25,739 bases of DNA, taken from assembly GCA_039589315.1 (NCBI GenBank), contig JBDHHQ010000060.1, positions 1-25,739 on the forward strand, read 5' to 3'. The position numbers and the translations under genes were made by a program. Below, in pieces: positions 4,426 to 25,738 of this stretch. Numbering within the stretch: position 1 is the first letter of the stretch; the number at the start of each line of letters is the position of its first letter. This DNA comes from Gemmatimonadota bacterium (GTDB lineage: Bacteria; Gemmatimonadota; Gemmatimonadetes; Longimicrobiales; Gaopeijiaceae). The notes under the pieces were generated by a model. The model did no database searches. It saw nothing but the letters and a program-made list of their open reading frames with translations, and was not told the origin of the DNA.

Positions 4426-5294
4426 AGCTGCGCCTCCGACGCGTCTCGGGCCAGATGCGCAAGCCTCGTAGCCGTATGTCGCGCCCTCTCCGTCCAGAAG
4501 CCTGCGATCTGGACCTCTGTGTCATCCACCAAGCCTTGGTGTCTGGTTACCCACGCCTCGGCTTCCCCGGCGAGCCAGCCGAGCATGCGAGCGGCGTCCT
4601 GGGAGAACAGAGCCTGCAGGGCGTACCGCCGCTCGCCGGCTCGGAGGCCGAGGCCGGTGTCACTGGCCGCCCGCGCCAGATCCGCCCGTGTGAGGATCAT
4701 GCCTGAACGGACGGGGGTGAGGAGCCCGTCCAGGAATGCCTCGCCGCCTTCGGCTCTCGGGTCCGGCAGGTCTGGCGCCTCTCGCAGGTGAAGGGGCAGG
4801 GAGCCCGTGTGTTCGCTCCCTCGGGCTGCCTCCCTCACGGCGGCTTTGAGCAGCGTTGCCCACGACCGGTAGAAGGGGTGGCCCAGCTCGCTCACTCTCG
4901 AGAGGTAGGGTCCGGTCCATGGCAACAGATGCTCGTGCAGCAACGCCGTCGCGCCCCTACCCAGGAGGCCCGCTTCGGCCGGGTCGGGTCCAGCGCGGGC
5001 GGCCTCTGCCAGGTTCGCGTAGAGTCCGAGCAGCGTGGTCAGATGATCAGGCTCGGGGGGCGGCGCGGTGCCCACGGCTCGCCAGAAGCCGGCGACCCGG
5101 TCACGTGCCTCTCCACCCAGCTTCCCTTCCGCACCGAGATAGAGCGACGCGTACGGCGGCAACTGGAAGAGGAAGAGCTCCGTGTGCTCCGTCTCGTCGG
5201 GCAGGGGGCCGAGCTCCAGGAGCTCGGCCGCGCGACGGAGCCCTGGCTCCGGGGGTCCTGCCAGCGCTCCGAGTGCGCGGAACAGCTCGGGCAC
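4410..5294 (-). CDS. TorD/DmsD family molybdoenzyme maturation chaperone (extended C-terminus)
   Basis: PPYASLY and PEPDHL motifs, then LLHEHLLPW..YL and PFY. Starts 1 nt after the molybdoenzyme stop. Confidence 0.88.
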   Translation of the reverse strand: MPELFRALGALAGPPEPGLRRAAELLELGPLPDETEHTELFLFQLPPYASLYLGAEGKLGGEARDRVAGFWRAVGTAPPPEPDHLTTLLGLYANLAEAARAGPDPAEAGLLGRGATALLHEHLLPWTGPYLSRVSELGHPFYRSWATLLKAAVREAARGSEHTGSLPLHLREAPDLPDPRAEGGEAFLDGLLTPVRSGMILTRADLARAASDTGLGLRAGERRYALQALFSQDAARMLGWLAGEAEAWVTRHQGLVDDTEVQIAGFWTERARHTATRLAHLARDASEAQLCDGP

Positions 5295-5295
5295 G

Positions 5296-8274: not shown

Positions 8275-8326
8275 GATCGTTGAGTCATCCCGCCGTGGGA
8301 GTGTCGTTCCGACAGGATCGACACTC

Positions 8327-10174: not shown

Positions 10175-12265
10175 CTACCGCTCGCCCGCGGCGATCTCTT
10201 CATGCTCGACTCGCTGCCGCATCTCGGCGATCTCGCGCCTGCTGTCTTCGACCAGCGTCTGGAATCGTGGGTCGTCACGCACCGAGTCCATCATGGGGTC
10301 GAACTCTGCGTAGTAACGCTGGGCTGCCTGGAAGCCAGCAGCCCGGGAGCGCTCCGCGAAGTCCAGCGCCTCCTCTCGTCGTCCGAGGGCGGCGTGGATC
10401 GCGCCGATCTCCCAGATGAATGCCGCATGGTCGGCGCCGGCATCGAGCCGTTGCTGAAGGTCGCGAGCTTGCACCTCGAGAAGCCGCGTCCCGACCTCTG
10501 AGTCCCCGGCCAGATACGTGGCGTAGGCCCGTGCGGTTTGCAGATGGTACCATGCCCAGGGGTTTGCTCCCGGCGCTGTTTCCGCCAGCCGATCCGTGAT
10601 GGCCAGAGCGCGGGACGGATCGTGGTCAGCGAGCGCGATCAGCGCGTCGAATGCCAGATACCACGTTTGGTTCTCACTTTCCGCCCTCCAACGCTCCATC
10701 ATGCCGACCGCGGCCGCGAGGTCGCCGCGGTGCAGCTCGATAATGGTCCCGTACACGGCTCGCGTGGGTCCCGAATTCCCGTCGACGTCGACCTGCTCGG
10801 CGTAAACCCGATCCGCGCGCTCGAAGTCGCCGAGCACCGCGTATGTCGCTGCCACGTTCGCTGGCCCGAAAGTCGTGGGGTTGAGCCGGGTGGATCGCTT
10901 GTACCACCGTAAGGCCTCGTCATGCTGTCCCTTGCGGGCGTAGTCGACGCCGATGTTGTTGGTCGCCCCATGATGATTCGGGTCTCTGGCCACGGCCTGG
11001 AGGTTGGCCTCGAGTGAGCGCTCGTACTTGGCCTCTACGCTGTACGTGAGTGCCAGCGCCTTGTACCCGGCCGCGACTTCAGGGGCGAGCTCGATGGCCT
11101 TTTGTGCGTAGGTCCGGGCAGAGTCCGCCCACTCCATCGCGTACCCGAAGAGGAGTACCCGCTGCCCGAAGGCGTCCGCGATTCCGGCCCAGGCCTCCGC
11201 ATAGTCCGGGTCGATCTCCAGGACCTCCCTGAACAGCCGGATCGCCTCATCGTTGTCCTCGGGCGTGTAGGTCTGGTAGACCTCGCGGCCCCGGATATAG
11301 AGGTCGTAAGCCGTCAGGTCGTCCGTCGGACGACGGGCGATGCGTGAAGCTTCTTGCGGAGAGAGAGTGGCGCGCAGCGCTGCCGCGATCTGCTGGGCGA
11401 TCTCGGTCTGGATCGCGAAGACGTTCGCGGCCGTGAGCGCCCGGTCGAAGTTGTCGGCCCAGAGGTGCTCGTCGGTGCGGGCGTCGATGAGCTGGGCGGT
11501 GATCCGCACGTTGTCGCCCGATCGCCGAACGCTGCCCTCGAGAATCGAGCCTACGCCGAGCTCACCGGCGATCTCGCTCATGCCCAGCGCGGTCTCCCGG
11601 TAGGCAAGCACCGACGTCCGGGAGATCACCGTCAGGTCGGCGATCTTGGACAGTTGGGTCAGGACGTCTTCGTGGATCCCGTCCGCGAAGTGTGCGTTCT
11701 CCGTGTCCGAGCTCAGATTGTCGAAGGGAAGGACGGCAATCGCTTTCAGGGCATCGTCTCCCAACCCGTTGGCGGTTTCGCCGCCGTCCCCGGCGATCCA
11801 TCGGGTCGATCCCAGCCAGAGCGTGGCCAAGACTCCCCAGAGAGCGAATGCCAGCACCCCACCGGTGATGGCGTTCTTCCAGGTGAGGAGCCGATAGAGC
11901 TTCGGTGGGCGGGTCGTAGGGCGGTCGAGGGAGCCGGTGCCGGCAGCGACGTTGGTGCTCGGCGGCTCCGGGACCGCCGCGGCTGCCGTACCCTCCGCAC
12001 CGGGGTCGCCCGGTGCCTTGCCCCCCGGCACCCCTCCCGCCAACCCCTGCTGCACGATGGCCGTGGCCAGGATGATGGGCAGCCCGATCACCAGCAGCGC
12101 CAAAGCGAAGCCCGGGAACCACTCCGGCAGCCCAAAGCTACTGACCAGTACGTCCACGACCTGGAGCGCGATCCACGACCCCAGGACATAGACGCCCAGC
12201 GCACGCCAGAAGAAGCCGCGCTTGGCGTGGCGAGCGAAGTCGCCGAGACTCGGCTGCTGGCTCAT
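10175..12265 (-). CDS. Array paralog R7: 3-TM anchor + TolB-like domain + TPR repeats
   Basis: N-terminal TM pair, TWKNAITGGVLAFALWG, IAVLPFDNLS..FADGIHEDVLTQLSKI..EGSVRR..AQLID..HLWADNFDR, TPRs, C-terminal DPMMDSVRDDPRF. ATGA overlap with R6 at 12262-12265. Confidence 0.9.
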   Translation of the reverse strand: MSQQPSLGDFARHAKRGFFWRALGVYVLGSWIALQVVDVLVSSFGLPEWFPGFALALLVIGLPIILATAIVQQGLAGGVPGGKAPGDPGAEGTAAAAVPEPPSTNVAAGTGSLDRPTTRPPKLYRLLTWKNAITGGVLAFALWGVLATLWLGSTRWIAGDGGETANGLGDDALKAIAVLPFDNLSSDTENAHFADGIHEDVLTQLSKIADLTVISRTSVLAYRETALGMSEIAGELGVGSILEGSVRRSGDNVRITAQLIDARTDEHLWADNFDRALTAANVFAIQTEIAQQIAAALRATLSPQEASRIARRPTDDLTAYDLYIRGREVYQTYTPEDNDEAIRLFREVLEIDPDYAEAWAGIADAFGQRVLLFGYAMEWADSARTYAQKAIELAPEVAAGYKALALTYSVEAKYERSLEANLQAVARDPNHHGATNNIGVDYARKGQHDEALRWYKRSTRLNPTTFGPANVAATYAVLGDFERADRVYAEQVDVDGNSGPTRAVYGTIIELHRGDLAAAVGMMERWRAESENQTWYLAFDALIALADHDPSRALAITDRLAETAPGANPWAWYHLQTARAYATYLAGDSEVGTRLLEVQARDLQQRLDAGADHAAFIWEIGAIHAALGRREEALDFAERSRAAGFQAAQRYYAEFDPMMDSVRDDPRFQTLVEDSRREIAEMRQRVEHEEIAAGER
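11441..11494. repeat. 54-bp perfect direct repeat shared by R7 (11441-11494) and R4 (18118-18171)
   Basis: ccggtcgaagttgtcggcccagaggtgctcgtcggtgcgggcgtcgatgagctg read at both sites; flanking bases differ. Confidence 0.85.
11610..11668. repeat. 59-bp perfect direct repeat shared by R7 (11610-11668) and R6 (13694-13752)
   Basis: accgacgtccgggagatcaccgtcaggtcggcgatcttggacagttgggtcaggacgtc read at both sites; flanking bases differ. Confidence 0.85.
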
Positions 12266-14391
12266 CGGAGGCCTGCCTGGATCTCTTCGGCTTCCACCCG
12301 CCGCCGTTGCTCCTCGATCTCGCGACGGCTCTCCTCGAACATGGCCACGATTCGAGGATCGTCACGTACCGATGCCATCATGGGTTCGATCTCCAGGTAG
12401 CCGTTTGCGGGCTGGAAGCCGGCCTCCCGAGCCTGGGTCGCCAGTCGGACTGCCTCTTCGGGTTCACCCAATGCCGCGTGAATCGCGGCCAGCTCCCAGA
12501 AAAGGCCCGGGCGGTCGGCGCCCGCAGCGAGGTGCGATCGGATCGCCGCTGCTCTATCTGCCAAGAGGGCCTGACCCTCGGCCTCGTCGCCCGTCCGCAT
12601 CATCGCGTAGCCCAGGCGCGTCTGAAGATCGTAGAAGACGATCTCGAGCGAGGCTCCCGGCGACAGCTCGAAGGCTCGCTCCGCCGATTCCCTTGCGCCC
12701 TCTAGATCCCCTGCCGCAGTGCGTGCCGCTGCGTCGAAGGCAAGAAAGACGGGCACGTCCCAGAGCTCGGCTCGACCGGCGTTTGAGCGTTGCAGCGCAG
12801 CCGACGGGTCACGCGTGTAGAGCTCGAGCATGATCCCGTAGTTCGTCCGCCTGAAAAGCGCCGCTTCAACGTCGGCCGCCTCGGCATAGGCCCGTCGAGC
12901 GATGTCCTCCTCTCCCAAGAGTGCGTAGGCCGTCACTTTGTTCAACGCGGCGAAGGCCAACGGGTTCAATCTCACGGCTCGCTTGTACCACCGGATCGCC
13001 TCGTCGTATTGGCCAAGGCGCTCGTAGCTGAACCCAGCGTTGTTGACTGCGGCGTAGTGGTTCGGATCACGGGCAATGGCCTCAAGGGCCGCCTCGAGAG
13101 CGGCCCGCTCACGACCGCGCATCGTCATGGAAAACGCCAGAGCCTTGTAGCCGGTCGCGACCCTTGGGTCGAGGTCGATGGCGTGGCGCGCGAGGGCCTC
13201 GGCCGAGTCGGCCCACTCTATGGGGTAGCCGAACAGCTGGACTCGCTGGTCGTAAGCGTCGGCGAGTCCGGCAAAGGGCTCCGCGTAGCCCGGGTCGCTG
13301 GAAATAGCCTCCTTGAAGAGCCGGATGGCCTCTTCGTTGTCATCGGTCAGGTAGCGCTGGTACGCCTCCCGTCCGCGAATGTAGAGATCGTAAGCCGTGA
13401 GATCTGTCGTTGGCACGTGAGCGATCCGCGTTTCCTCTTCGGGCGACAGCGTAGCCCGCAACGCCTCCGCGATTTGACGGGCGATCTCGGTCTGGATCGC
13501 GAACACGCTGGCGGCGGTGAGGCCGCGGTCGAAGTTGTCGGCCCAGAGATGCTGGTCGGTCTCCGCGTCGATGAGCTGAGCCGTGATGCGCACGTTGTCG
13601 CCGGCCCGTCGTACGCTCCCCTCCAGGATCGAACCCACTCCGAGCTCGTCAGCGATCTGGCGCAGGCTCTTCTCGGTTGTGCGGTAGGGGAGGACCGACG
13701 TCCGGGAGATCACCGTCAGGTCGGCGATCTTGGACAGTTGGGTCAGGACGTCCTCGTGAATGCCGTCGGCGAAGTAGGCGTTGTCAGCGTCGGCGCTCAA
13801 GTTGTCGAATGGGAGCACCGCGATGGCCTTGAGGCCGTCGTCTCGGCGGTCGTCGGTGCCGCCGACCGCCGATCGCTGGTCATTGGTCGACAGCAGCAGA
13901 CCCGTTGCGATGACACCCCAGAGTCCAAACGCGGCCACGCCGCCTAGAACCGCGTTCCGCCAGGTGAAGAGTCGGTGGACGGTGCCGGGCTCGCCCGTGG
14001 CCGGCCGAATGGCCGAGAGGCCTCCGGTCGTCGGGGAGGCGGCGGAATCCAGGGTTTCCAGGGCATCCAGCGAGCCCGGGGCCTCGCCCGAGCCTGCTGA
14101 GGAGCCCCCGGCGCTGGGGCCCGCCTTGGCTCGCGCCTCCCTGGAGCCGGGCCCGTCTCGGCCTCTGACACCCTCCTGGACGATGGCCGTTGCCATGACG
14201 ATGGGGAAGCCGATCAGGAGCAAAAGCACCGCGGTTCCGTACGCCCAATCCGGCATCTCAAAACGCTGGATCACGTGGTCGGCGGCCTCGAGCACGGCCC
14301 AGGACGCGCCCAGGTACAGGATCATCACCTGCCACAGGGAGCGGCGGTGGGCCTCGCGCACCAGGCGCTTCATGCCGTTGTCCGGGCTCAT
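12262..14391 (-). CDS. Array paralog R6: 3-TM anchor + TolB-like domain + TPR repeats
   Basis: Same architecture and core motifs as R7. Start placed at ATG 14391 (MSPDNGMKRLVREAHRRSLWQ) by alignment with paralogs; the ORF-track extension to 14637 overlaps R5 and looks non-coding. Confidence 0.9.
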   Translation of the reverse strand: MSPDNGMKRLVREAHRRSLWQVMILYLGASWAVLEAADHVIQRFEMPDWAYGTAVLLLLIGFPIVMATAIVQEGVRGRDGPGSREARAKAGPSAGGSSAGSGEAPGSLDALETLDSAASPTTGGLSAIRPATGEPGTVHRLFTWRNAVLGGVAAFGLWGVIATGLLLSTNDQRSAVGGTDDRRDDGLKAIAVLPFDNLSADADNAYFADGIHEDVLTQLSKIADLTVISRTSVLPYRTTEKSLRQIADELGVGSILEGSVRRAGDNVRITAQLIDAETDQHLWADNFDRGLTAASVFAIQTEIARQIAEALRATLSPEEETRIAHVPTTDLTAYDLYIRGREAYQRYLTDDNEEAIRLFKEAISSDPGYAEPFAGLADAYDQRVQLFGYPIEWADSAEALARHAIDLDPRVATGYKALAFSMTMRGRERAALEAALEAIARDPNHYAAVNNAGFSYERLGQYDEAIRWYKRAVRLNPLAFAALNKVTAYALLGEEDIARRAYAEAADVEAALFRRTNYGIMLELYTRDPSAALQRSNAGRAELWDVPVFLAFDAAARTAAGDLEGARESAERAFELSPGASLEIVFYDLQTRLGYAMMRTGDEAEGQALLADRAAAIRSHLAAGADRPGLFWELAAIHAALGEPEEAVRLATQAREAGFQPANGYLEIEPMMASVRDDPRIVAMFEESRREIEEQRRRVEAEEIQAGLR

Positions 14392-14465
14392 GACGCCCCC
14401 CACGCCGGGCTCGCCCAGAGGGAGCCTGCGATCCACGGGCTTCCGCGCCCCCGGTCCGGGGTCAT
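14388..14465 (-). CDS. Candidate 25-aa mini-ORF bridging R5 and R6 (MTPDRGRGSPWIAGSLWASPAWGAS)
   Basis: ATG overlaps the R5 stop (ATGA 14465-14462) with GGAGG 6 nt upstream. Its TGA overlaps the R6 start (ATGA 14391-14388). Confidence 0.4.
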   Translation of the reverse strand: MTPDRGRGSPWIAGSLWASPAWGAS

Positions 14466-16864
14466 GGCGTCCCTCCGGCCAGCGCGGCCGCTCGTTCCCG
14501 GGCGTGCTCGACCCTCGGCTGCAGCACCGGATCGGCACGGGCCCACGCCTCGGCGAAGTCGGCGTAGTGCTTCGCCGCCCGTTCGGCATCGCCGAGCCGC
14601 TCGTACAGGGGCCCGAGGCGAGAAAGGGCCAGGACACGGTCTGCTGGATAGAAGGTCAGGTCATAGACCTCTTCGGCCACCCCCTCCCAGAGCTCGGCGG
14701 CATGCGCAAGATCGTCCGATCGCTGGTGCAGGGTCGCCAGCTCGACACGGTAGCAACGATCACAGTGCAGGTCTCGCTGCAGTGCCTCGAACGCCCCGAT
14801 GGCCTCGCCGATGCGATCCCGTCCCACTTCGATCCATGCAGACGCCTCTCGACGGTCCCACTCGAAGCCGGGGGGGCGGTCATCGGGCGGAAGCTCACTC
14901 TCCCACCGCCCGAACAGGCGCTCCGCCTCGGCCACGGCTCCGGATGCGGCCAGCTCGCGGATCACGTCTCGCCAGCGACGCTGGGTTGCGGCCAGGTCCT
15001 CGAAGGACCACCGCTCGAGCGCGTTGAGAGCGAAGCCGGCCGCAGCGGTGGTGTCGCCGAGGAAGTCCCTGACCACGGAGCCTTCGATGAGCGCCGTCTC
15101 GATCGCCATCCGGCCGAGTCCGAGGGTGTTGGCGAGCCGGGCGCCCTCTTCGAGATGGGAACGGGCTTCGTCCATACGGCCCAGCGAGACGTCGAAGGCC
15201 GCTGCCAGCCGCCAGCCGATGGACCGGATGTTGGGAAGCGTCTCCTCGTCGCCGGTTTGTGTGGCCACCGCCTCATGCACAGAGGCGGAATCGCCGACTT
15301 GCAATTCGATCAGGCTCCGCGACCAGCCGAGGTAGGTATGACCCGGGTACCGCTGTTCGTAACGCTCTTGCGCGGCTCGGGCCTGCGCGGTGTCGCGCTG
15401 AAACAGGTAGGCTCGGACCCGGTTCCAGTTCGCCACCGAGGACTCGCCCGGTCCTCCGACCGCACGCTCCAATAGCTCGATCGCTTCTTCGAACTCGTCC
15501 CGGTCGAAGAGCGTCAGTGCCAGGTTGTTCAAGGCCGCGCTCTCGTCGGGCGCAACCCGAAGGGCGTTGCGGTAGGCCAGGATCTCGGCGTCCACGTCTC
15601 CGGTGACACGGCTGTGGTAGTACGCCTCGGTGAGATACCGTTCGCGCTCGGTCAATCGGTCGCGATTCTCGTACGCCGCGAGCGTGGCGTCTCGGCTCCG
15701 GGGCCCCACCGAGCCCTGATTGAAGAGGAGCACGGCGATCTTGCGGTGCGCCATGGCGAACGCGGGATCGAGCTCCACAGCCTCCTCCAACAGGGCGAGC
15801 GCTGCCGGGTAGTCGCCTTCTTCCTCGGCGCGTTCTGCCGCCGTCAGCTTCTGCAGAGCGGACAGGGACGCCGTGGTGGCGCGCTCCAGCGGCTCGCCGG
15901 CCCGGATCGAGCGAAGCGACTCCCCCGTGCCCTCGCGGATGTTCTGGGAGAGCTGGTCGATGGCGTCCACGACCTCGTCGTCCGATCGGGCGGTCTCACG
16001 AAATGCTTTGAGCACGTCGCCGGATTGGGCGGCGACGACCGAGGCGCTGATCACGTAGGCACTCCCGGCCGTGGCGATCTCGCCCTGGATCACCGCCTTG
16101 AAGCCCTCACGCACGGCGACTTCTCGGGCGAGTTCGGCCGTGAGCTCGACGTCGGAGCTTCGACCCATGAGGCCCAGCACGTCGCCAACGCGACTCGGCG
16201 TGACGAGCGCCAGCACGGGCGACTCGACCAGATCGACCCGTAGGACTTCCGTGACCACGTCGCCGAGACCGTCCTTGCCCGTCGTATTCGCGAAGTCGGC
16301 GAGGACGACCGGGTCGCGCTCGTCCAGGACGCCCTGCGCCACCAGCGAGCCCACTGGCCCTACCCCGGTGGACCACATCACGAAGTAGGCGAACACGGTG
16401 ACGCCCAGCAGGGCAAAGGCGAACACGCCGCCCAGCACCGCGTTGCGCCAGGTAAGGAGCCGGTGGTGCATGCCGGGGCGGGCTGTCGCCTGGCCTTGGG
16501 CGCCCGTGGAGTCGGTGGGCGGAGCGGTCGCACGCGCAGGCGCCGACTGTGCCGCGGGCTCCGCGTCAACCGACACTTGGCGGGCGCGTCGGTCGACCTC
16601 GCCGGGCTGCTCGGCCTCACGATCGTCCGCCCGTCCGCTTCCGGGCAGCCCCTCCTGCACGACCGCCGTCGCCAGGCAGACGGGCAGACCGATGAGGAGC
16701 AGGACGACGGCGAACCCTGGCGTCCAGTCCGGCAGCCCCGCACTCTCCGTCAGCACCTCGACGACCTGTAGGACCACCCATCCGGCCACCAGGTAGATGC
16801 CCAGCACCTGCCAGATCGACCGGCGATGGACTTCGCGGATCAGGTCCCTCACGGCGCTCATCAC
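14462..16864 (-). CDS. Array paralog R5 (divergent subfamily): 3-TM anchor + variant TolB-like domain + TPR repeats
   Basis: Shares HRRSIWQVLGIY..LPDW..IGLP and TWRNAVLGGVFAFAL, but the core is DPVVLADFANTTG..REGFKAVIQGEI..LERATTASL. TPRs (EAVELDPAFAMAHRKIA) and C-terminal WARADPVLQPRV. Start is GTG 16864 or ATG 16861; both overlap the R4 stop. Confidence 0.88.
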   Translation of the reverse strand: MMSAVRDLIREVHRRSIWQVLGIYLVAGWVVLQVVEVLTESAGLPDWTPGFAVVLLLIGLPVCLATAVVQEGLPGSGRADDREAEQPGEVDRRARQVSVDAEPAAQSAPARATAPPTDSTGAQGQATARPGMHHRLLTWRNAVLGGVFAFALLGVTVFAYFVMWSTGVGPVGSLVAQGVLDERDPVVLADFANTTGKDGLGDVVTEVLRVDLVESPVLALVTPSRVGDVLGLMGRSSDVELTAELAREVAVREGFKAVIQGEIATAGSAYVISASVVAAQSGDVLKAFRETARSDDEVVDAIDQLSQNIREGTGESLRSIRAGEPLERATTASLSALQKLTAAERAEEEGDYPAALALLEEAVELDPAFAMAHRKIAVLLFNQGSVGPRSRDATLAAYENRDRLTERERYLTEAYYHSRVTGDVDAEILAYRNALRVAPDESAALNNLALTLFDRDEFEEAIELLERAVGGPGESSVANWNRVRAYLFQRDTAQARAAQERYEQRYPGHTYLGWSRSLIELQVGDSASVHEAVATQTGDEETLPNIRSIGWRLAAAFDVSLGRMDEARSHLEEGARLANTLGLGRMAIETALIEGSVVRDFLGDTTAAAGFALNALERWSFEDLAATQRRWRDVIRELAASGAVAEAERLFGRWESELPPDDRPPGFEWDRREASAWIEVGRDRIGEAIGAFEALQRDLHCDRCYRVELATLHQRSDDLAHAAELWEGVAEEVYDLTFYPADRVLALSRLGPLYERLGDAERAAKHYADFAEAWARADPVLQPRVEHARERAAALAGGTP

Positions 16865-18933
16865 AGGCTACCTTCGGCTTCCCAGCGCTCGACGTTGGCG
16901 CGCTGCTCGGCCAGGTCGTCGGCGATGCGGCTCATGAGGGTCTGCCATCGGACTGTCTCCCGGACGGAATCGAAGACCGGATCGACGTCGAGTCCCAGGA
17001 CGTAGCGGAAGCCCTGGTCATAGGCTCGCTCCGCCCAATCGAGGGCCGCATCCGTGCTCCCGAGAGCAGCGTGCACGCCGGCCACGTCGAACGAGTAGGT
17101 GTTCAGGTCCGAGCCCTCCTCGACGCGCTTCGTCAGGTCATCCCGCAGACCCTCCAGGAGCCGTCGACCCTCGTCCACTTCGCCGGTCTGGAGCAAGGCG
17201 CTTCCCAGGAACAGGTGGACGTGATGGTAGCCCCACAACTCGTCCCCAGGGCTCGAGCTGAGCGCCGCTCGCGCGTGGCGGATCACAGTCTCCCAATCCC
17301 CCAGGAAGAAGGCGTCCGTCGCCACGGCGATGTGGCGGTTCGCCGATTCCGGATCTTCCTCCAAGCGGGTCAGGGACTGCTGAAGAGACCCGGCGTAGTC
17401 CCCTCGACCCCATCGCACCTGCCGCAGAGCGAATGCGGCGCCGCCGTTGTCGGGTTGAAGCTGCAGGACTTCCAACGCCCTCTCTTCGGCCCGGTCGAAG
17501 TCACCCAGCGCGTTCAGGGTGCTCGATACGTTGGTGCTTGCCGGCCCCACGGTGGGGTCGATGCGCGCGGCGCGGAGGAAATACCGCAGCGACTCGTCGT
17601 GACGCCCGATGTCGCGGTAGTCGACCCCGGCGTTGTTCAGCGCCGAAGAGTGGTTCGGATCCAACTCGATGGCCCGGAGATTCGACTCCAAGGAAAGCTG
17701 GATACGCCCCTGCTGGCTGTAGGCGAGAGCGAGCGCTTTGTGACCTGCGGCCAGCTCCGGATCCAGCTCGAGCGACTTGCGTGCCATCGACTCGGACGAG
17801 TCGGCCCATTCGATCCCGAAGCCGAAGCGCTGCGCACGCTGCCCATAAGCGTCGGCCAGCCCCGCCCAGGCATCCGCATACTCCCCGTCACGGGAGAGGG
17901 CCTCCCCGAAGAGCCGGATGGCCTCTTCGTTGCCCTCCTTCGTCAAGTCGGAATACACGTTCCGGCCCTGCAGGTAGAAGTCGTAGGCCGCCAGATCCTC
18001 GGTGGGGGTGCGGGCGATCTGACGCTCGGCCGAAGGGGTCAGCGTGGCCTGGAGCGCGTCGGCGATCTTCTGTGCGATCTCGGATTGCAGAGAGAAGAGG
18101 CTGGCCGCCGAGAGCCTCCGGTCGAAGTTGTCGGCCCAGAGGTGCTCGTCGGTGCGGGCGTCGATGAGCTGCGCGGTGATACGTACTTCGTCACCGGCCC
18201 GTCGCACGCTTCCCTCGACGATCGCGCCGACACCCAGCTCGCTGCCGATCTCGGCAATGGGCTTTCCCGTGTCACGGTAAGCCAGCACCGAAGTGCGGGA
18301 GATCACGGTCAGATCGGCGATCTTGGACAGCTGGGTCAGCACGTCCTCGTGGATCCCGTCGGCGAAGTAGGCGTTGTCCGGATCCGGGCTCAGGTTGTCG
18401 AACGGCAGCACCGCGACGGAGCGGAGCCGATCCTCGGCCTCCCCACCGGTTTCGACCGGCGCAGCTCCAGGGCGTGAGCCAGAGAGCAACACCGCCGTGG
18501 CGACCAATCCCCAGAGCGCGAACGCCAGGACCCCGCCGCCCATGGCGTGTCGCCAGGTAAGGAGGCGCTGGAGGGTGGGTGGGTCGGCGGTGTGGGCGAG
18601 CCCCTGTCCCGCGGCTACCCTCTGGGCTCCTGGGTCCCTCGGGAACTCCTGCGCATCAGCGGCGCCCGGATCCGTCGGCACCCGGCCATGCGTGGGGGTG
18701 GGCGGCGTGCCCGGCCGCACGCCCTCCTGCACGAAGGCGGTGGCGACCACTACGGGCAGCCCGATCACCAGGAGGGCCAGAGCGAAGGGGGGGAGCCACT
18801 CGGGCAGCCCGAAGCTGTCCACGAGCAAATCCACCACCTGAAGCGCGATCCAGGACCCCACGATGTAGATGCCCAGTACCTGCCACAGGGAACGGCGGTG
18901 GATCTCTTGGATCAGACTCCGAAGACCGCTCAT
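16861..18933 (-). CDS. Array paralog R4: 3-TM anchor + TolB-like domain + TPR repeats
   Basis: Same core motifs. Start at ATG 18933 (MSGLRSLIQEIHRRSLWQ), ATGA overlap with the R3 stop. Confidence 0.9.
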   Translation of the reverse strand: MSGLRSLIQEIHRRSLWQVLGIYIVGSWIALQVVDLLVDSFGLPEWLPPFALALLVIGLPVVVATAFVQEGVRPGTPPTPTHGRVPTDPGAADAQEFPRDPGAQRVAAGQGLAHTADPPTLQRLLTWRHAMGGGVLAFALWGLVATAVLLSGSRPGAAPVETGGEAEDRLRSVAVLPFDNLSPDPDNAYFADGIHEDVLTQLSKIADLTVISRTSVLAYRDTGKPIAEIGSELGVGAIVEGSVRRAGDEVRITAQLIDARTDEHLWADNFDRRLSAASLFSLQSEIAQKIADALQATLTPSAERQIARTPTEDLAAYDFYLQGRNVYSDLTKEGNEEAIRLFGEALSRDGEYADAWAGLADAYGQRAQRFGFGIEWADSSESMARKSLELDPELAAGHKALALAYSQQGRIQLSLESNLRAIELDPNHSSALNNAGVDYRDIGRHDESLRYFLRAARIDPTVGPASTNVSSTLNALGDFDRAEERALEVLQLQPDNGGAAFALRQVRWGRGDYAGSLQQSLTRLEEDPESANRHIAVATDAFFLGDWETVIRHARAALSSSPGDELWGYHHVHLFLGSALLQTGEVDEGRRLLEGLRDDLTKRVEEGSDLNTYSFDVAGVHAALGSTDAALDWAERAYDQGFRYVLGLDVDPVFDSVRETVRWQTLMSRIADDLAEQRANVERWEAEGSL

Positions 18934-21107
18934 GGCGTTCCGCTCTCCGCTTCTTCCCGCTGCACGCTGGCGCGCATCACGGCCACGTCCTCCGCCATGC
19001 GAGTCGTGAGCGCTCGCCAGCGGGGATGCTCCCGCACCGAGTCGAACGCCGGATCGACATCGAGGCCGATGGTGAAGCGGTAGCCTTGATCGTAGGCCGC
19101 CTCCATCCAATCGAGAGCGGCGTCCGTGTCGCCCAGGGTCGCGTCGATGGCCGCGAGCTCGAACTGGTTGGAGTTCTGCTCCGGCATGACTTCGGTGCGG
19201 CGCAGGAGACGGTCGCGGAAGTCCTCCAGCACCTTTCGCCCCTGAGCCTCCTGACCGGTTCGCATCAGGGACACGCCGAGGAGAACCTGGGGGTAGTGGC
19301 TCTGGGCATACTCGGTGTCCGGCGAAAGGCGCAAGGCCTCCTGCGTGGCCTGTATCGTGGTCTCGAAGTCGCTCAGCAGGAATGCGTCGCTCGCGACCCA
19401 GAGCTGCGTCCGGGAGACGCCAGGGTCTGCCGCCATGACTGCTTTGGAGCGCTCCAGCGCGCCAGCGTAGTCGCCCCGCAGTTGGTCCACCGAGCGCAAG
19501 ACGTTGATGGCCGATTCGTTGGACGGCTGGAGCCGCAGGATCTCCTGCGCCCGGGCCTCGGCCTGGTTGGCCATTCCCAGGAACGCGTAGTCGAAGGCGA
19601 TGTTCGAGCTGGCGAACCCGGTCGTCGGTTCCAGTCGGTAGGCCCGCTTTTGGTACCGGAGCGCCTCGTCGAACCGCCCCAGGAAGAGCTGATCCACCCC
19701 GATGTTGTTCAGCGGGGCACTGTAGTTCGGGTCCAGCTCAACGGCCTTGAGGTTGTTCTCGAGGCTGGCCCGGATCTGGCCCCGGCTGTTGAGGGCTAGT
19801 GCCAGGGCCTTGTACCCCTGCGGAAGGTCCGGGTTGATCTGAAGGGCCCGGCGTGCGACGGCCTCTGCCGAGTCGGCCCATTCGCGGCCGTATCCGAAGC
19901 GGACCACCCGCTGCGCGTACGCATCCGCGAGTCCCGCCCAGGCGTCCGCGTAGTCCGGATCCCTGGACAGCGCTTCGAGGAACAGCCGGACGGCCTCGTC
20001 GTTGCCGGCATCACTGTAGAGTTGGTAGGTGTTCCGGGCCTGCAGGTAAAAGTCGTACGCGGCAAGATCCGACGTGGGGCTCCGCGTGATCTGCTCTTCT
20101 TCGGCTGGGCTCAGGGTCGCCGCCAGCGCTTCGGCGATGCGCTGGGCGATCTCGGACTGGATCGCGAAGATGTTGGCCGCCGTGAGCTGCCGGTCGAAGT
20201 TGTCGGCCCACAGATGCTCGTCCGTGCGTGCGTCGATCAGCTGGGCGGTGATGCGGACGTTGTCCCCGGCGCGCCGGACGCTTCCCTCCAGGATCGACCC
20301 GACGCCGAGCTCGGCGGCGATGTCACCCAGGCCGAGCGCGGTGTCCCGGTAGGGCAGGACCGACGTACGGGAGATCACGGTCAGATCGCCCAGCTTGGAC
20401 AGTTGGGTCAGGACGTCCTCATGGATGCCGTCGGCGAAGTAGGCGTTCTCTTCTTCGGCGCTCAGGTTGTCGAAGGGTAGCACCGCGATGGCGCGGAGCA
20501 GCTCGCCGGAATCGGAAGGCGTGCTCGAGGATTCTCTTGGACCGGCCCGACCGGAGAGGAGCAGCGCCGTCGCCACCACGCCCCAGAGAGCGAAGGCCAA
20601 CACGCCACCGGCGATGGCGTTCCGCCACGTGAACAGTCGTTGGGCGGCAGATGACCCGGTTACGAGCGGGGCGTAGCCGTCCGTTCCGGCGGGAGCCGCG
20701 GTCGGTGTCGGGGCAGCGAACTCTCCTGCCGCCGGTTCCGGGCCGTCTGCCGCAGTGATCGGGTGACCTCTCGTGGTCGCGGTGGCGTGCGATTCCGCCG
20801 CGGCCACGTCCGCGTCCGACGTTTCGTCGGAAACGTGGCGGGGTGGAACGGCGGCGGTCCCCGCTTCCTCGCTTCCCCCGCGCCAGCCCTGCTGGACGAT
20901 GGCCGTGGCGAGCACCATCGGGAAGCCGATGATCAGCAGCACCAGCGCCATCCCAGGTAGCCAATCCGGCAGGTTGCCCGCTTCGACGATGCCCTGAACC
21001 ACCTCCAAGGCGAACCAGGCGCCCACGGCGTACACCGTGACCACCTGCCACACCGAGCGACGGTGGATCTTCTGCAGGAGTCCGGCGCGGTCGTTCGCCT
21101 CCCTCAT
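18930..21107 (-). CDS. Array paralog R3: 3-TM anchor + TolB-like domain + TPR repeats
   Basis: Same core motifs. ATG 21107 (MREANDRAGLLQKIHRRSVWQ) is preceded by a strong GAGGAGG Shine-Dalgarno. Confidence 0.9.
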   Translation of the reverse strand: MREANDRAGLLQKIHRRSVWQVVTVYAVGAWFALEVVQGIVEAGNLPDWLPGMALVLLIIGFPMVLATAIVQQGWRGGSEEAGTAAVPPRHVSDETSDADVAAAESHATATTRGHPITAADGPEPAAGEFAAPTPTAAPAGTDGYAPLVTGSSAAQRLFTWRNAIAGGVLAFALWGVVATALLLSGRAGPRESSSTPSDSGELLRAIAVLPFDNLSAEEENAYFADGIHEDVLTQLSKLGDLTVISRTSVLPYRDTALGLGDIAAELGVGSILEGSVRRAGDNVRITAQLIDARTDEHLWADNFDRQLTAANIFAIQSEIAQRIAEALAATLSPAEEEQITRSPTSDLAAYDFYLQARNTYQLYSDAGNDEAVRLFLEALSRDPDYADAWAGLADAYAQRVVRFGYGREWADSAEAVARRALQINPDLPQGYKALALALNSRGQIRASLENNLKAVELDPNYSAPLNNIGVDQLFLGRFDEALRYQKRAYRLEPTTGFASSNIAFDYAFLGMANQAEARAQEILRLQPSNESAINVLRSVDQLRGDYAGALERSKAVMAADPGVSRTQLWVASDAFLLSDFETTIQATQEALRLSPDTEYAQSHYPQVLLGVSLMRTGQEAQGRKVLEDFRDRLLRRTEVMPEQNSNQFELAAIDATLGDTDAALDWMEAAYDQGYRFTIGLDVDPAFDSVREHPRWRALTTRMAEDVAVMRASVQREEAESGTP

Positions 21108-21178
21108 GGGCCCTCCTCGCTGGAGGGAGGGGCCGGAGTCCACGTCGCGGACCGGGTCGCCATGGTGAACATGCTCAT
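21104..21178 (-). CDS. Candidate 24-aa mini-ORF bridging R2 and R3 (MSMFTMATRSATWTPAPPSSEEGP)
   Basis: ATG overlaps the R2 stop (ATGA 21178-21175) after GGGGGAG. Its TGA overlaps the R3 start (ATGA 21107-21104). Three in-frame ATGs in the first six codons. Confidence 0.4.
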   Translation of the reverse strand: MSMFTMATRSATWTPAPPSSEEGP

Positions 21179-23205
21179 CGCTCCCCCGCCCGGGTCTCTT
21201 CGCGCTCGATCTCTGACCGCATGCGTTCGACGTCAGCGCTCACCTCGGCCAGGATACCCTGGAAGCGCGGGTCGTCACGCAGCGGATCCCAGACCGGATC
21301 GCGCTCGATCAAGTGCACCCCGCGGAAGCCCGCGTCTGAAGCCCGGCCCAGCCAGTCCAGGGCCTCGTCCAGCCGTTCCAGGGCGGCGTAGATGCTGGCC
21401 GTCGAGTAGCTCCAGAACACGAAATCCGGAGTGTCTCGAGCGCGCGCCACCGTCCTCTCCAGATCGCGCTGGAGGGACGGACCTGCTGCTTCCGGCTGTC
21501 CCAGACGGCGAAGGCTCCGGCCTACTACCAGGTCGAGGTGCATGAAGTACAGCACCCCTTGGTCCGGCGAAAGCTCGAGGCCGCGCCGAGCTAGCTCCAG
21601 GGCGCGCTCGTCCCGGCCGGTGAAGGATAGGAAGTTGGCGGCGCTTGCGATTCGAACCGGATCGTCGGGGGCGACTTCGACCAGCCGCTCCGCCAGGCCT
21701 GCAGCCTCGTGATCGTTCCCCGTGAACCAATGAAGCTGGGCAAGGGTTTGGAGGGTGGCGTCCGCATCGGGCTCCAGCGCGAGCGCGTCGTCCAGGATCC
21801 GTCGGGCAATCTCGTACTCACGAAGCTGCATGTACGCGCTGGCGAGATTCGTTCGTGAAAAGGCCTGGTTGGGCTGGAGGGCGAATGAACGCTTGGTCCA
21901 CCGCAAGTTCTCGGCGAGGCGCCCCATGCGCTGATAGGTGGCCCCGACGTTGTTGATCGCGTCGGCGTTGTTGGGCGCGAGCTCGACGGCTCTCAGGTTG
22001 GCCTCCAGACTCCCATTCAGGTCTCCCTCCGCGACATGTGCCAGGGCCAGGGCTTTGTGGGCGCTGGCCAACTCCGGATCGAGCTCGATGGCGTGCCGCG
22101 CGGCGGCCTCGGCTGAATCCGCCCACTCGATTCCGTACCCGTACCGCAGCACCCGCTGACCATATGCGTCGGCCAAACCGGCCCACGGCTCCGCGTAGGA
22201 CGGGTCGCGGTCGACGGAGGTCCGGAAGAGGCGAATGGCCTCGGTGTTGGCCTCCTCGGTATAGAGCCGGTACCGCTCACGACCGCGCAGCGTCGCGTCG
22301 TACGCCATCAAGTCCTCGGTGGGCTGACGCTCGATCCGCGTGGTCACCTCGGGAGAGAGGGTGGTGGTCAGAGCCTTGGCGATCCGTTGCGCGATCTCCG
22401 TCTGGATCGAGAAGATGTTGGCAGCCGTGAGCGCCCGGTCGAAGTTGTCGGCCCACAGGTGCTCGTCAGTGCTGGCGTCGATCAGCTGCGCCGTGATGCG
22501 AACATTGTCGCCCGCTCGTCGGACGCTGCCCTCGACGATGGCGCCGGCGCCGAGCTCTCGGCCGATGTCGGACAGGTTCTTCGTGGTCTCGCGGTAGCCC
22601 ATGACCGAGGTCCGGGAGATGATCGTCAGGTCTTCGATCTTCGAGAGCTGAGTCAGGACGTCCTCGTGAATGCCGTCGGCGAAGAAGGCGTTCTCCTGGT
22701 CCGCGCTGAGGTTGTCGAAGGGCAGGACGGCCACCGTACGCAGGGCAGCCTGGCCGCCGTCCGCGCCGCTGACGGTCCGAGCGGCGTCGCGTCCCCCGAC
22801 CACGAGCCACACGGCTGCAACCACGCCCCAAAGGGCGAAGGCGAGCACACCACCGAGGATTGCGTTGCGCCACGTGAACAGGCGGTGGGCGGAGGAGGGC
22901 AGGACGGGCTCCACAGACTGCGGCGCGTCGAGGGCCGAGCTTGGCTTCACCTCCGAGGGGGTGGCGACCGGCGGCACCACCGGGCTCGCTTGGATGATCG
23001 CCGTGGCAAGGACGATGGGTAGCCCGATCACCAGCAGAGCTACGGCAAATGCCGGGAACCAGTCCGGCAGGCCGAAGTTCTGCGCCAGGAAGTCCACCAC
23101 CTGTAGCGCGACCCACGAAGCCACGAGGTAGACGCCCAGCGTCTGCCACAACCGGTGGCTTCGCGCGACGGCGACGAGGCGGGGGAGCTCGTTCTGCTCG
23201 CTCAT
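21175..23205 (-). CDS. Array paralog R2: 3-TM anchor + TolB-like domain + TPR repeats
   Basis: Same core motifs, C-terminal DPVWDPLRDDPRFQ. ATGA overlap with R1 at 23202-23205. Confidence 0.9.
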   Translation of the reverse strand: MSEQNELPRLVAVARSHRLWQTLGVYLVASWVALQVVDFLAQNFGLPDWFPAFAVALLVIGLPIVLATAIIQASPVVPPVATPSEVKPSSALDAPQSVEPVLPSSAHRLFTWRNAILGGVLAFALWGVVAAVWLVVGGRDAARTVSGADGGQAALRTVAVLPFDNLSADQENAFFADGIHEDVLTQLSKIEDLTIISRTSVMGYRETTKNLSDIGRELGAGAIVEGSVRRAGDNVRITAQLIDASTDEHLWADNFDRALTAANIFSIQTEIAQRIAKALTTTLSPEVTTRIERQPTEDLMAYDATLRGRERYRLYTEEANTEAIRLFRTSVDRDPSYAEPWAGLADAYGQRVLRYGYGIEWADSAEAAARHAIELDPELASAHKALALAHVAEGDLNGSLEANLRAVELAPNNADAINNVGATYQRMGRLAENLRWTKRSFALQPNQAFSRTNLASAYMQLREYEIARRILDDALALEPDADATLQTLAQLHWFTGNDHEAAGLAERLVEVAPDDPVRIASAANFLSFTGRDERALELARRGLELSPDQGVLYFMHLDLVVGRSLRRLGQPEAAGPSLQRDLERTVARARDTPDFVFWSYSTASIYAALERLDEALDWLGRASDAGFRGVHLIERDPVWDPLRDDPRFQGILAEVSADVERMRSEIEREETRAGER

Positions 23206-25310
23206 CGCCGACCCGCCCGGGTCTCTTCGCGCTCGATCGTAAGACGCTGGCGCTCTACGTCTTCCCGCATCGTGCCGAGGATCTCCTGGAAGCGGGGATC
23301 GTCCCGCGCCGCGTCGAAGACCGGATCGTGCTCGACGTAGAACGGGTATCGCCAGCCGGCCTCGTAGGCGGCCTCGAGCCAGTCCAGGGCCGGGCTCAGC
23401 TCACCTCGGGCCGCGTGAACCGACGCGATCTCGAACGGGACGACCGCCGCTTCGGGGCGTCTCTCCCAGTCCGCCATCCGACGCGCCAGGACGTCGTCCA
23501 ACAGCTCGTTCCCTGCCTCCGTGGCGCCTTCCCTGAGGAGCGCGTATCCACCGGTCAGACCGGCCAGTCGCCACCCAACCACGTCCTGATCCGGCGACAG
23601 CTCGAGACTGCGCTGGGCCAACTCGGCCGCGACGTCGAAGCGGCGCGCGAAGAGGTTAGCCTCCGCTGCCCACGCCAGGAAGAAGATGCTGTTCGGGTCC
23701 TGTTCCAGGACATCGTCCGCAACATCGGCGCCAGCGTCCGCGTGCCCCTCGAAGATGTGAAGGAATCCCAGGTACAGTCGTGTGTCCGGGTCCGTCGGAT
23801 CGAAGCGTAAGGCCTCGTCGAGACGAGCGTGTGCGATATCGAAATCGCCGAGCAATGCGTACCCAAAGGCCGCGTTGGCCCGCGCGAAGGCCAGGTTGGG
23901 CTGAAGGCGATACGATCGGCTCATGAGACGGAACGCGTCGTCATGGCGACCGAGACGCTGGTACGATACTCCCGCGTTGTTGACGGGATCGGAGTAGTTG
24001 GGGTCCAACTCCATGGCTCGGAGGTTCGATTCGATGGACGCCACGTCGTCTCCGCGAGCCCCCTGGGCGAGCCCGAGGGCCTTGTATGCGGTGGCCAGGT
24101 CCGGATCCAGCTCCAGTGCACGTCGTGCGGCGGCTTCGGACGAGTCAGCCCACTCCAGCCCATACCCGTACCGGATCACGCGCTGCCCGTAGGCATCCGA
24201 CAGGCCGGCCCAGGGCTCGGCGAATGAGGCGTCCCCGTCGATGGCGAGCCGAAAGAGCCGGATGGCCTCGTTGTTGGCTCCATCGGTGTACAGCCGATAC
24301 GCCTCCCGGCCCCGGAGGGAGGCCAGGTAGGCATCCAGGTCCTCAGTGGGCCGGCGCACCAGCCGGTCTTCTTCTTCCGGCGACAGCGTCGCGGCCAGCG
24401 CGTCCGCGATCCGCTGTGCGATCTCCGTCTGGATGGCAAAGACATTCGCGGCGGTGAGGGCTCGATCGAAGTTGTCCGCCCAGAGGTGACGGTCCGTCTC
24501 CGCGTCGATGAGCTGTGCGGTGATACGCACGTTGTCGCCGCTCCGGCGCACGCTGCCCTCGAGGATCGTCCCCACGTCCAGCTGGCGCGCGATCTCGGCC
24601 AGGGGCGTCGCGGCATCCCGGTACGCCAGCACCGATGTGCGCGAGATCACTGTCAGATCGCCGATCCGGGACAGCTGCGTCAGGACGTCCTCGTGGATGC
24701 CGTCCGCAAAGAACGCGTTCTCGGCGTCCGTGCTCAGGTTGTCGAAGGGGAGCACGGCGATGGACTTCAGCCTCTCGCTTCCGCTGGTCACGGCAGTTCC
24801 ACCGACCAGGGGCTCGTCGGCGGGACGCAATTCCCGGTCGACCCACACCTTCACGCCCATCCAAGCGGCGGCGAGGACGCCCCAGAGTGCGAAGGCCAGA
24901 ACGCCACCGCCGATGGCGTTCCGCCACGTCAACAGTCGGAGGAGCCGGGGCGGACGAGTGCTGGGCCGGTCCAGTGAGCCGGTACCGCGGGCCAGGTCGG
25001 AGGAGGCGGGCACTTGGGGGATGGTCTCGGACGGTCTTGGTTTCTCCCGGACGCCGGTGCCGACAGGGGCCGGTGCCGCGCCGCCCCCACCGCCCACCCC
25101 CTCCTGCACGAAGGCGGTCGCCACCACGATCGGGAAGCCCACGATCAGGAGCATCACGGCGAACGCCGGAAACCACTCCGGGAGCCCGAGAGAGTCCACC
25201 AGCGTCTCGACCACCTGTAGGGCTATCCAGCCGCCCAATAGATAGATGCCGATGACCTGCCACACGGACCTACGGTGAATCTCGTGTATGAGGCGCTTCA
25301 GGTGGGACAA
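23202..25310 (-). CDS. Array paralog R1: 3-TM anchor + TolB-like domain + TPR repeats
   Basis: Same core motifs. Probable TTG start at 25310 (MSHLKRLIHEIHRRSVWQ, aligning with the R4/R5 starts); exact start uncertain (ORF track 25394). Confidence 0.88.
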   Translation of the reverse strand: MSHLKRLIHEIHRRSVWQVIGIYLLGGWIALQVVETLVDSLGLPEWFPAFAVMLLIVGFPIVVATAFVQEGVGGGGGAAPAPVGTGVREKPRPSETIPQVPASSDLARGTGSLDRPSTRPPRLLRLLTWRNAIGGGVLAFALWGVLAAAWMGVKVWVDRELRPADEPLVGGTAVTSGSERLKSIAVLPFDNLSTDAENAFFADGIHEDVLTQLSRIGDLTVISRTSVLAYRDAATPLAEIARQLDVGTILEGSVRRSGDNVRITAQLIDAETDRHLWADNFDRALTAANVFAIQTEIAQRIADALAATLSPEEEDRLVRRPTEDLDAYLASLRGREAYRLYTDGANNEAIRLFRLAIDGDASFAEPWAGLSDAYGQRVIRYGYGLEWADSSEAAARRALELDPDLATAYKALGLAQGARGDDVASIESNLRAMELDPNYSDPVNNAGVSYQRLGRHDDAFRLMSRSYRLQPNLAFARANAAFGYALLGDFDIAHARLDEALRFDPTDPDTRLYLGFLHIFEGHADAGADVADDVLEQDPNSIFFLAWAAEANLFARRFDVAAELAQRSLELSPDQDVVGWRLAGLTGGYALLREGATEAGNELLDDVLARRMADWERRPEAAVVPFEIASVHAARGELSPALDWLEAAYEAGWRYPFYVEHDPVFDAARDDPRFQEILGTMREDVERQRLTIEREETRAGRR

Positions 25311-25573: not shown

Positions 25574-25738
25574 TCAGCTGGACCCGGGCACGAGGTTTCC
25601 CGCGATCCAAACGGACTCCAGTGAACGGGTGTTGGCGACATCTGCCGTAGGATCTGCCCCGAGGACCAGGAGGTCTGCCCACTTGCCCGCCTCCAACGTC
25701 CCCACGTCGTCCAGCCCCATGCAAGCCGCGGCATCCCG
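25574..25738 (-). CDS. Amidohydrolase family protein, C-terminal tail (5' part outside window; missing from the ORF track)
   Basis: Manual translation RDAAACMGLDDVGTLEAGKWADLLVLGADPTADVANTRSLESVWIAGNLVPGSS* contains the classic GxLxxGKxADLxVLxxDP...VWxxG end of metal-dependent amidohydrolases. Confidence 0.85.
   Translation of the reverse strand, partial: RDAAACMGLDDVGTLEAGKWADLLVLGADPTADVANTRSLESVWIAGNLVPGSS

Follow-up and report, generated by a model that had tools for sequence, protein, structure and literature searches.

A tandem array of output-less TPR membrane proteins in a Gemmatimonadota bacterium as candidate sensor halves of split receptors

Output-less membrane sensors coupled in trans to a Hanks-type kinase have been described in the Cache_heme-HAMP (CHH) receptor with its docked Ser/Thr kinase (10.64898/2026.05.25.727664) and in the split receptor-kinase system GlnH-GlnX-PknG (10.1101/2021.06.11.448168), as far as the available portions of both reports go. 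A parallel in logic only comes from plants, where many kinase-less receptor-like proteins (RLPs) are combined with the adaptor kinase SOBIR1 (PMC6637861, available text), which, according to a title in the reference list of that paper, needs a transmembrane (TM) motif for its complexes. No existing explanation covers how output-less 'TolB-like/TPR' membrane proteins, built on tetratricopeptide repeats (TPRs), could signal. Seven such proteins are encoded by a tandem gene array, G1 to G7, which fills positions 10175-25310 of a 25,739-nucleotide contig (C60) of a Gemmatimonadota bacterium; this entire contig is the window analysed here. We tentatively propose, at a confidence close to but short of even, that the proteins act as sensor halves of split receptors in the inner membrane, coupling through a membrane module to kinases or cyclases. 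Throughout, G000 denotes this genome and C its contigs, G001 and similar labels other genomes, L the loci fetched from genomes and P database proteins.

The fold of the sensor has a described counterpart in CadC of E. coli, a ToxR-like regulator (PDB 3LY7) whose periplasmic part consists of two subdomains according to the available part of 10.1101/2022.04.08.487670. In both, an outer alpha/beta sandwich followed by TPR helices lies behind a membrane helix. The AlphaFold2 model of G2 (pLDDT 90.6) has long helices at residues 17-44, 50-73 and 112-143. The first two are followed by a disordered linker, and the third leads into an alpha/beta domain and then a TPR superhelix. Residues 141-473 of the model match CadC 190-511, the whole periplasmic domain, with Z 20.4 and an rmsd of 4.2 over 305 aligned residues, and the Foldseek TM-score is 0.67 by target length. 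TPR subunits of APC/C tie with CadC on Z, aligning less specifically, and peptide-binding Rap/NprR domains come next (Z 17-19); these lists are dominated by TPR proteins and barely probe residues 1-155. Unlike CadC, the array proteins have no winged-helix output, possess three membrane helices instead of one, carry a longer TPR array, have dozens of paralogues and, in six of seven cases, are free of cysteine; the seventh, G5, has a CxxC near its C-terminus (window about 14730-14750). Trans_reg_C gave no match on the contig. With the N-terminal winged helix and the single TM helix both absent, and only the sensor fold present (as seen for G2), the array proteins are not members of the CadC/ToxR family. 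Nor are they members of the TolB (Tol-Pal) family, since TIGR02800 scores only 20-27 bits against 343, covers just profile positions 6-190 of 418, and the G2 model has TPR helices in place of the beta-propeller. G5 is not a member of the TIGR04510 peptide-modification-system cyclases, which it matches over profile positions 242-565 only and below the cut-off (165 against 400 bits); Guanylate_cyc had no match on the contig. TPR-tailed kinases, class III cyclases and BTAD regulators with a TolB-like domain share the same core and TPRs, whereas the array proteins start at the hairpin. The COG5616 label was given in an earlier note made from the DNA letters alone; the name 'TolB-like protein', which databases use for relatives, is consistent with it. 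The named relatives are nearly all from Gemmatimonadota, several of them from Longimicrobiales.

The CHH and GlnX systems, as covered by those portions of their reports, are single operons that dock in the cytoplasm (through HAMP or TPR), whereas the candidate partners considered here, on contigs C3 and C10, are unlinked to the array. In our proposal it is homologous membrane modules that would make the contact, with a small number of effectors serving many receptors. With plant RLP-SOBIR1 there is no homology: here the sensors are TPRs, not leucine-rich repeats, and the module has three TM helices.

Sensor architecture of the array proteins

All seven proteins start about 10-15 aa ahead of TM1. 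Because TM1 and TM3 each follow a stretch with basic residues, and the loop joining TM1 to TM2 is acidic, we infer an N-in, C-out topology, and therefore a periplasmic sensor. The earlier note had ascribed a common layout to all seven and an essentially invariant core to six. The TM layout is indeed common to all, the ectodomain of G5 being different; in the other six every motif named in that note is identical, while identity over the entire core is 76-85%. Averaged over the 15 pairs of these six copies, identity is 56% in the hairpin, 33% in the linker, 74% in TM3, 80% in the core, 56% in the proximal, 30% in the distal and 41% in the terminal TPRs. The distal TPRs, at 24-40%, diverge as strongly as had been claimed, giving a gradient from conserved core to variable repeats. 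Within this variability, two repeats have asparagines on their groove helices that all seven proteins share without change. Asparagines in TPR grooves are associated with peptide backbone binding, which suggests that the groove binds peptide backbones here as well.

The statement that none of the seven carries an output domain also holds. Pfam yielded TPR families only, besides a weak MIT match in G6 (E 0.008), and neither Pfam nor NCBIfam gave a catalytic or DNA-binding family in G1-G7. A cryptic catalytic domain, which the earlier note had named as a possible refutation, was likewise absent from a PDB sequence search and the listed fold matches.

A membrane hairpin shared with sensor-less effectors

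The N-terminal part of each array protein is a two-helix membrane hairpin, an unnamed domain, located on the minus strand at 25101..25298 in G1, 22987-23184 in G2, 20889-21086 in G3, 18724-18921 in G4, 16652-16849 in G5, 14173-14370 in G6 and 12047-12244 in G7. No Pfam or NCBIfam family matched any of 61 hairpin members better than E 0.002, the ESM Atlas returned for the N-terminal module just unnamed clusters of 115-124 aa, and a literature search, partial in coverage and confined to main texts, found no description of this family or hairpin. A profile of the 61 members, in turn, matches 20,954 clusters (50% identity) at E<=0.001 and 102 of the 151 genomes of the order. The family is genuine and widespread, and apparently undescribed.

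An iterated hairpin profile identified 96 open reading frames (ORFs) in the genome, a count that contamination may inflate (the assembly of 6.67 Mb is 95% complete with 5.07% contamination); a different profile found 40 matches in G001. The 96 comprise 72 full-length output-less ORFs, 6 cut by contig ends, 11 short or broken, and 7 bearing an effector. Output-less hairpin proteins occupy about 2.4% of the genome. The third helix is found in 65 of the 72, the others being six intact orphans and one broken hairpin. By simple end motifs the hairpins fall into classes A (27), B (32), C (18), D (9) and other (10), the array being class A throughout. The array as a self-contained system finds no support: it accounts for 7 of the 96 ORFs, as the largest cluster alongside eight others of 2-4 genes, and another seven-gene array exists at L023, although in 60 of 78 related loci there is just one hairpin gene. 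By the standard of its lineage the array is nothing unusual; its interest lies in the hairpin, through which a receptor repertoire that recombines is connected with sensor-less effectors. Starting at the hairpin is the rule among relatives too: 111 of the best 120 G2 matches do so, and none of 109 shorter relatives, many of them cut or broken, has an N-terminal effector (a length limit of 370 aa excludes kinase fusions from this set). Long open frames preceding hairpins in L201, L203 and L205 were judged by eye to be non-coding lead-in. A protein at G000:C42:14427-16163 has two tandem hairpin matches, as do P0241-P0244. The three-TM module also occurs alone, in L189:1908-2420 (G058), P0428, P0432 and P0454, some on long contigs; such proteins are possibly free adaptors or inhibitors, or broken genes.

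As the earlier note had anticipated, the genome encodes kinase, cyclase and BTAD proteins bearing the same core and TPR modules. More telling are two of the seven effector-bearing ORFs, which stop after TM3: a 414-aa kinase (G000:C3:132021-133262) and a 648-aa BTAD-kinase (G000:C10:38474-40417), both with the full three-TM module and both retained in the same-genus genome. Among the best 120 relatives of the C3 kinase, all have the hairpin and VAxK, 119 have DFG, and 118 end no more than 70 aa past the hairpin. In other genomes the sensor-less kinase loci are of two subtypes, one with hairpin ends like those of receptor class B and the other like those of class C. The catalytic loop reads HRDVRP in the C3 and C10 kinases, as against HRDxKP in the other 73 matched kinase ORFs; in the sensor-less family both forms are common. 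A PP2C-family phosphatase gene adjoins the type-B sensor-less kinase in three genomes (L170:2631-3611, L172, L174). In L204:846-6002 (G052), a single 1719-aa frame contains hairpin, kinase, AAA_16 ATPase and TPRs, resembling a membrane-tethered STAND-like kinase.

A second sensor-less effector, a hairpin-HisKA-REC-cyclase, has matches in 25 of 151 genomes, with the hairpin present in all 12 fetched loci. In the genome studied here the HisKA-REC-cyclase has no hairpin and directly follows a hairpin-core-TPR gene on contig C13 (G000:C13:15973-19718, L132:3974-7719); that gene lacks TM3 and ends ~45 nt ahead of the cyclase. The pair may represent fission of a hairpin-cyclase with an inserted cytoplasmic core-TPR region. 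A relationship of another kind is seen in G5, which aligns end to end, from the hairpin onward, with the C166 kinase (33% over 773 columns) and corresponds to that kinase minus its kinase domain.

The effectors are most frequent where hairpins are numerous. Across 150 genomes, the kinase with the three-TM module was found in 1 of 54 with 1-3 hairpin matches, 11 of 25 with 4-9 and 16 of 22 with at least 10 (0 of 52, 9 of 23 and 16 of 22 once the unpublished G046, G097, G110 and G160 are removed), and either effector in 6 of 54, 15 of 25 and 20 of 22, the last being 19 of 22 without a fragment in G024. These counts come from 12 and 8 candidates scored per genome; some of the cyclase matches miss the hairpin, effectors are themselves counted among hairpin matches, and related genomes are not independent.

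In the mechanism that we propose, the TPR superhelix would bind peptides or protein surfaces in the periplasm, and the receptors would associate in the membrane, via the shared module, with effector-bearing members of the family. Activation would follow from ligand-driven receptor clustering, which would switch the effector through the same module. Candidate partners are the sensor-less kinases, the hairpin-cyclase, or full kinase, cyclase or BTAD receptors. Signalling in trans through either the core or the TM bundle had been suggested earlier; because the sensor-less kinases carry the same TM bundle, the bundle is favoured and the core is not. A conserved, mostly single-copy kinase, and also a cyclase, each with the membrane module only, are concrete partner candidates. 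If the proposal is true, bacteria possess membrane-assembled networks in which many receptors serve one adaptor, and the modules, which recombine naturally, could be put to use in engineered sensors. If it is false, the hairpin would remain a large family of signalling anchors, so far undescribed, that deserves a model.

The linker has a conserved element of its own. In G1 it contains a Ser/Thr motif, GTGSLDRPSTRP (24951..24986, minus strand), predicted to be cytoplasmic and located 16 residues before RLxTW; the same motif is present in G7 (11906..11941, minus strand). Eight proteins, namely G1, G7 and six class-A paralogues dispersed in the genome, have motifs resembling GTGSLDRP(S/T)TRP exactly 16 residues ahead of RLxTW, and GTGSLD is found in just those 8 of 61,697 ORFs. 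Among 274 distinct class-A linkers 26 have the motif, with fixed spacing and synonymous codon variation, compared with a best 5-mer count of 6 over 50 shuffles. In the split-receptor proposal it is a likely phosphorylation or docking site of class-A receptors, to which the array proteins belong. The T-x-x-L spacing within it fits the preference of FHA domains. Alternatively, the receptors could signal without any pairing of homologous modules: once clustered, they would display the motif, together with basic amphipathic segments, for recognition by kinases or phosphothreonine readers unrelated to them, the hairpin only setting homo-oligomer identity. We consider this unlikely, even though a conserved motif within an otherwise free linker, its FHA-like spacing, the 87 Pkinase and 2 FHA matches in the genome and the failure to find a sensor-less class-A effector all speak in its favour. 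There is also a precedent in the available portion of the CHH report, where the kinase phosphorylates a receptor threonine (10.64898/2026.05.25.727664). What this explanation has to contend with is the rarity of the motif among class-A linkers and within the array, and it leaves unexplained why the same module occurs in class-matched subtypes of sensor-less kinases. About ten Ser/Thr kinase genes lie in one stretch of contig C42 (G000:C42:30463-67269), and many of the 87 kinase matches, inspected by eye, have a single TM helix and propeller-like tails.

Several observations weigh against coupling of the array proteins to kinases or cyclases through the membrane module. The array is class A, yet the genome census contains no sensor-less class-A effector: the C3 kinase is class C, as are all 120 of its best relatives, and the C10 kinase is class B. 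The linker motif is present in just two of the seven array proteins. Neither effector was found in G094 and G152, which have 13 and 11 hairpin matches and are 96 and 99% complete; G024, with 25 hairpin matches, gave a cyclase fragment only, and no effector-then-hairpin arrangement was seen among the fetched kinase, BTAD and cyclase loci of G024 and G058. Conversely, the hairpin-cyclase is present in genomes with 1-3 hairpin matches (G030, G090, G128 and, as partial matches, two more), and hence needs no receptor repertoire. The six intact orphans, without TM3, would have a cytoplasmic core, and there are soluble proteins that join the core to a cyclase or a kinase. Neither module is thus confined to one face of the membrane, and the hairpin may be a generic anchor. 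Finally, in 29 of 30 loci the surroundings of the sensor-less kinase, out to ~1.5 kb, are free of hairpin receptor genes, and the window contains no kinase.

Hairpin constraint and ectodomain exchange

Comparison with the same-genus genome G001, by pairwise Nei-Gojobori estimates on GC-rich DNA, showed where constraint is strongest. G2, G3 and G5 have clear orthologues there (80, 83 and 81% identical, respectively), while the flanking enzyme and transporter genes are 92-94% identical with dN/dS of 0.06-0.09. Over four orthologue pairs the hairpin is the most constrained part, with 90-98% identity (98% for G3) and dN/dS of 0.01-0.06; between paralogues, hairpin identity is 42-73%. That it is the hairpin, not the core, which is most constrained among orthologues had been overlooked in the earlier note. 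Such constraint would exceed the need of a passive anchor. It thereby bears on the idea that the array proteins do not signal at all. In that view they are tethered to the membrane and bind peptides, toxins or envelope enzymes in the periplasm, for capture, as decoys or as scaffolds, and the hairpin is a generic anchor retained from kinase or cyclase receptors whose output has been lost. Output-less ORFs do outnumber effector-bearing ones by 72 to 7, receptor-rich genomes without a detected effector exist, purely cytoplasmic proteins are anchored by the hairpin as well, and the TPR superhelix resembles the peptide-binding Rap/NprR domains. Capture alone, however, needs neither type-specific hairpin conservation, nor a selected cytoplasmic motif, nor a CadC sensor fold, and this idea seems to us to have little likelihood.

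Strong hairpin constraint could also reflect control of non-homologous membrane partners, such as transporters, channels or intramembrane proteases, by helix contact, in a reversal of the CadC-LysP pair, in which the permease LysP controls CadC (PMC6978683, available text). This we regard as improbable: the array has no transporter or protease genes, most related loci consist of a single hairpin gene (their other neighbours were screened for kinases only), and it is on kinases and cyclases that the module recurs.

Ectodomains, by contrast with the hairpins that carry them, have moved. The G001 gene at the position of G1 has a core 93% identical to that of G1 and distal TPRs just 36% identical, and the last gene of the G001 array combines a G6 hairpin (98%) with a G7-like core (94%) and other TPRs. 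Within the genome, G6 and a dispersed paralogue on C159 are 47% identical in the hairpin and 70% in the distal TPRs. Among 62 close relatives, 33 of 71 pairs with hairpins at least 86% identical have distal identity of at most 40%, and 7 of 27 pairs with distal identity of at least 55% have hairpins at most 70% identical. Trees built from 37 of the 62, partial and distant sequences being excluded, conflict at the starred branches: the hairpin clades are G6/h67/P0015/P0043 and G7/P0025/P0037, and the conflicting ectodomain pairs G6/C159, G7/P0015, h67/P0025 and P0037/P0043. On the hairpin data, approximately unbiased (AU) tests rejected three ectodomain pairs (p 3e-9, 2e-4 and 6e-57), with p 0.0002 for G6/C159; the groups were picked after viewing the identity table and both trees, and the tests concern the hairpin tree only. 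The switch points fall within the core or just after it. Recombination swaps ectodomains between hairpin types.

In the proposed mechanism, such exchange would rewire ligand specificity to a fixed membrane address. A bolder version, possible but rather doubtful, is that the hairpin is a membrane address code. Each hairpin class would then direct its share of the output-less TPR receptors, of which a genome has dozens, to the matching members of a small set of sensor-less kinases and cyclases, and recombination in the conserved core would re-wire ectodomains from one address to another. If so, it would be a bacterial counterpart of the plant RLP-SOBIR1 networks, in a domain family of about 21,000 clusters. 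What is new here is the very conserved hairpin types with ectodomain swapping, the module on sensor-less effectors and the Ser/Thr linker motif.

Between paralogues, synonymous sites are saturated in all regions, with third-position differences of 0.56-0.65 compared with 0.62-0.64 expected. The duplications that gave rise to the array are therefore old, and conservation of the core reflects selection, recent gene conversion being ruled out as its source. The earlier note had expected diversification to focus on the TPR groove. Groove and outer positions vary alike, being 30 and 35% identical between ectodomain groups (p 0.15) and 68 and 68% within them, in a test based on the repeat register and general TPR position classes. 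Positive selection finds no support either: in the distal TPRs of the G2, G3 and G5 orthologues, 74-81% identical, dN/dS is 0.13-0.22. Diversity has come from duplications long ago, from genes gained and lost, and from the exchange of modules, which that note had missed, and not from detectable groove-focused selection. These results make it highly improbable that the array is an arms-race immune repertoire, directed against phages or predators and under positive selection on the groove. Congeners do differ in copy number and content (seven against at least five genes), ectodomains are swapped and 11 of the 96 hairpin ORFs are short or broken, as such a repertoire would have it. Set against this are the missing groove bias, the low dN/dS, the age of the duplications and the housekeeping neighbours of the array. 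PADLOC, run on three of the seven proteins, gave nothing for G2 and G5 and one weak TPR match, not a specific one, for G7; the kinases match kinase-domain models only.

The array genes and their neighbourhood

The seven co-oriented genes noted earlier are borne out as minus-strand ORFs of 676-799 aa. G1 (23202..25310, ~702 aa) encodes the class-A hairpin, the linker with the Ser/Thr motif, TM3, the CadC-like alpha/beta core and TPRs; its start codon is uncertain, the database protein P0009 being 687 aa. The same architecture is shared by G2 (21175..23205, 676 aa), the copy chosen for the structure model, G3 (18930..21107, 725 aa), G4 (16861..18933, 690 aa), G6 (12262..14391, 709 aa), whose ectodomain is common to the C159 paralogue with its other hairpin type, and G7 (10175..12265, 696 aa). 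G5 (14462..16861, 799 aa) combines a hairpin and TM3 like those of the others with a TIGR04510-like region and TPRs. Four of the six junctions overlap, by 4 nt each at G1/G2, G3/G4 and G6/G7 and by 1 nt at G4/G5; the remaining two are gaps of 67 and 70 nt.

The array is bounded upstream by the 3' end of an amidohydrolase gene (25574..25738, minus strand), which lies outside the system, and downstream by an NrfC/NrfD fusion gene (8327..9862, minus strand), syntenic in G001 and the first gene of a molybdopterin oxidoreductase operon; with both ends so bounded, it is complete at seven. G7 and the NrfC/NrfD gene are 312 nt apart, and a scan of that gap found neither a sigma-70 promoter nor a minus-strand terminator.

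Misassembly can be dismissed. All self-matches of at least 99 nt in the window are only 67-77% identical, and in the congeneric G001 a syntenic array, with five genes or more up to the contig end that interrupts it, lies ahead of the same downstream operon; the array is therefore genuine. Copy number, which the earlier note had wished to see compared across relatives, was compared with G001, where G4 has no counterpart. The sole high-identity self-match, 62 nt at 92% between the TM3 regions of G3 and G1 (20578-20639 and 24877-24938), is possibly a short conversion tract.

Two further features lie beyond the array. The operon that begins with the NrfC/NrfD fusion (2890-9862, minus strand) continues with a molybdopterin oxidoreductase, a TorD-like chaperone and a SulP-STAS transporter, is co-oriented with the array and is syntenic in G001. 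On the plus strand, at 1221-2885, a fusion of GNAT acetyltransferase domains with a cNMP-binding domain is encoded downstream of polyphosphate kinase and is 92% conserved in G001.

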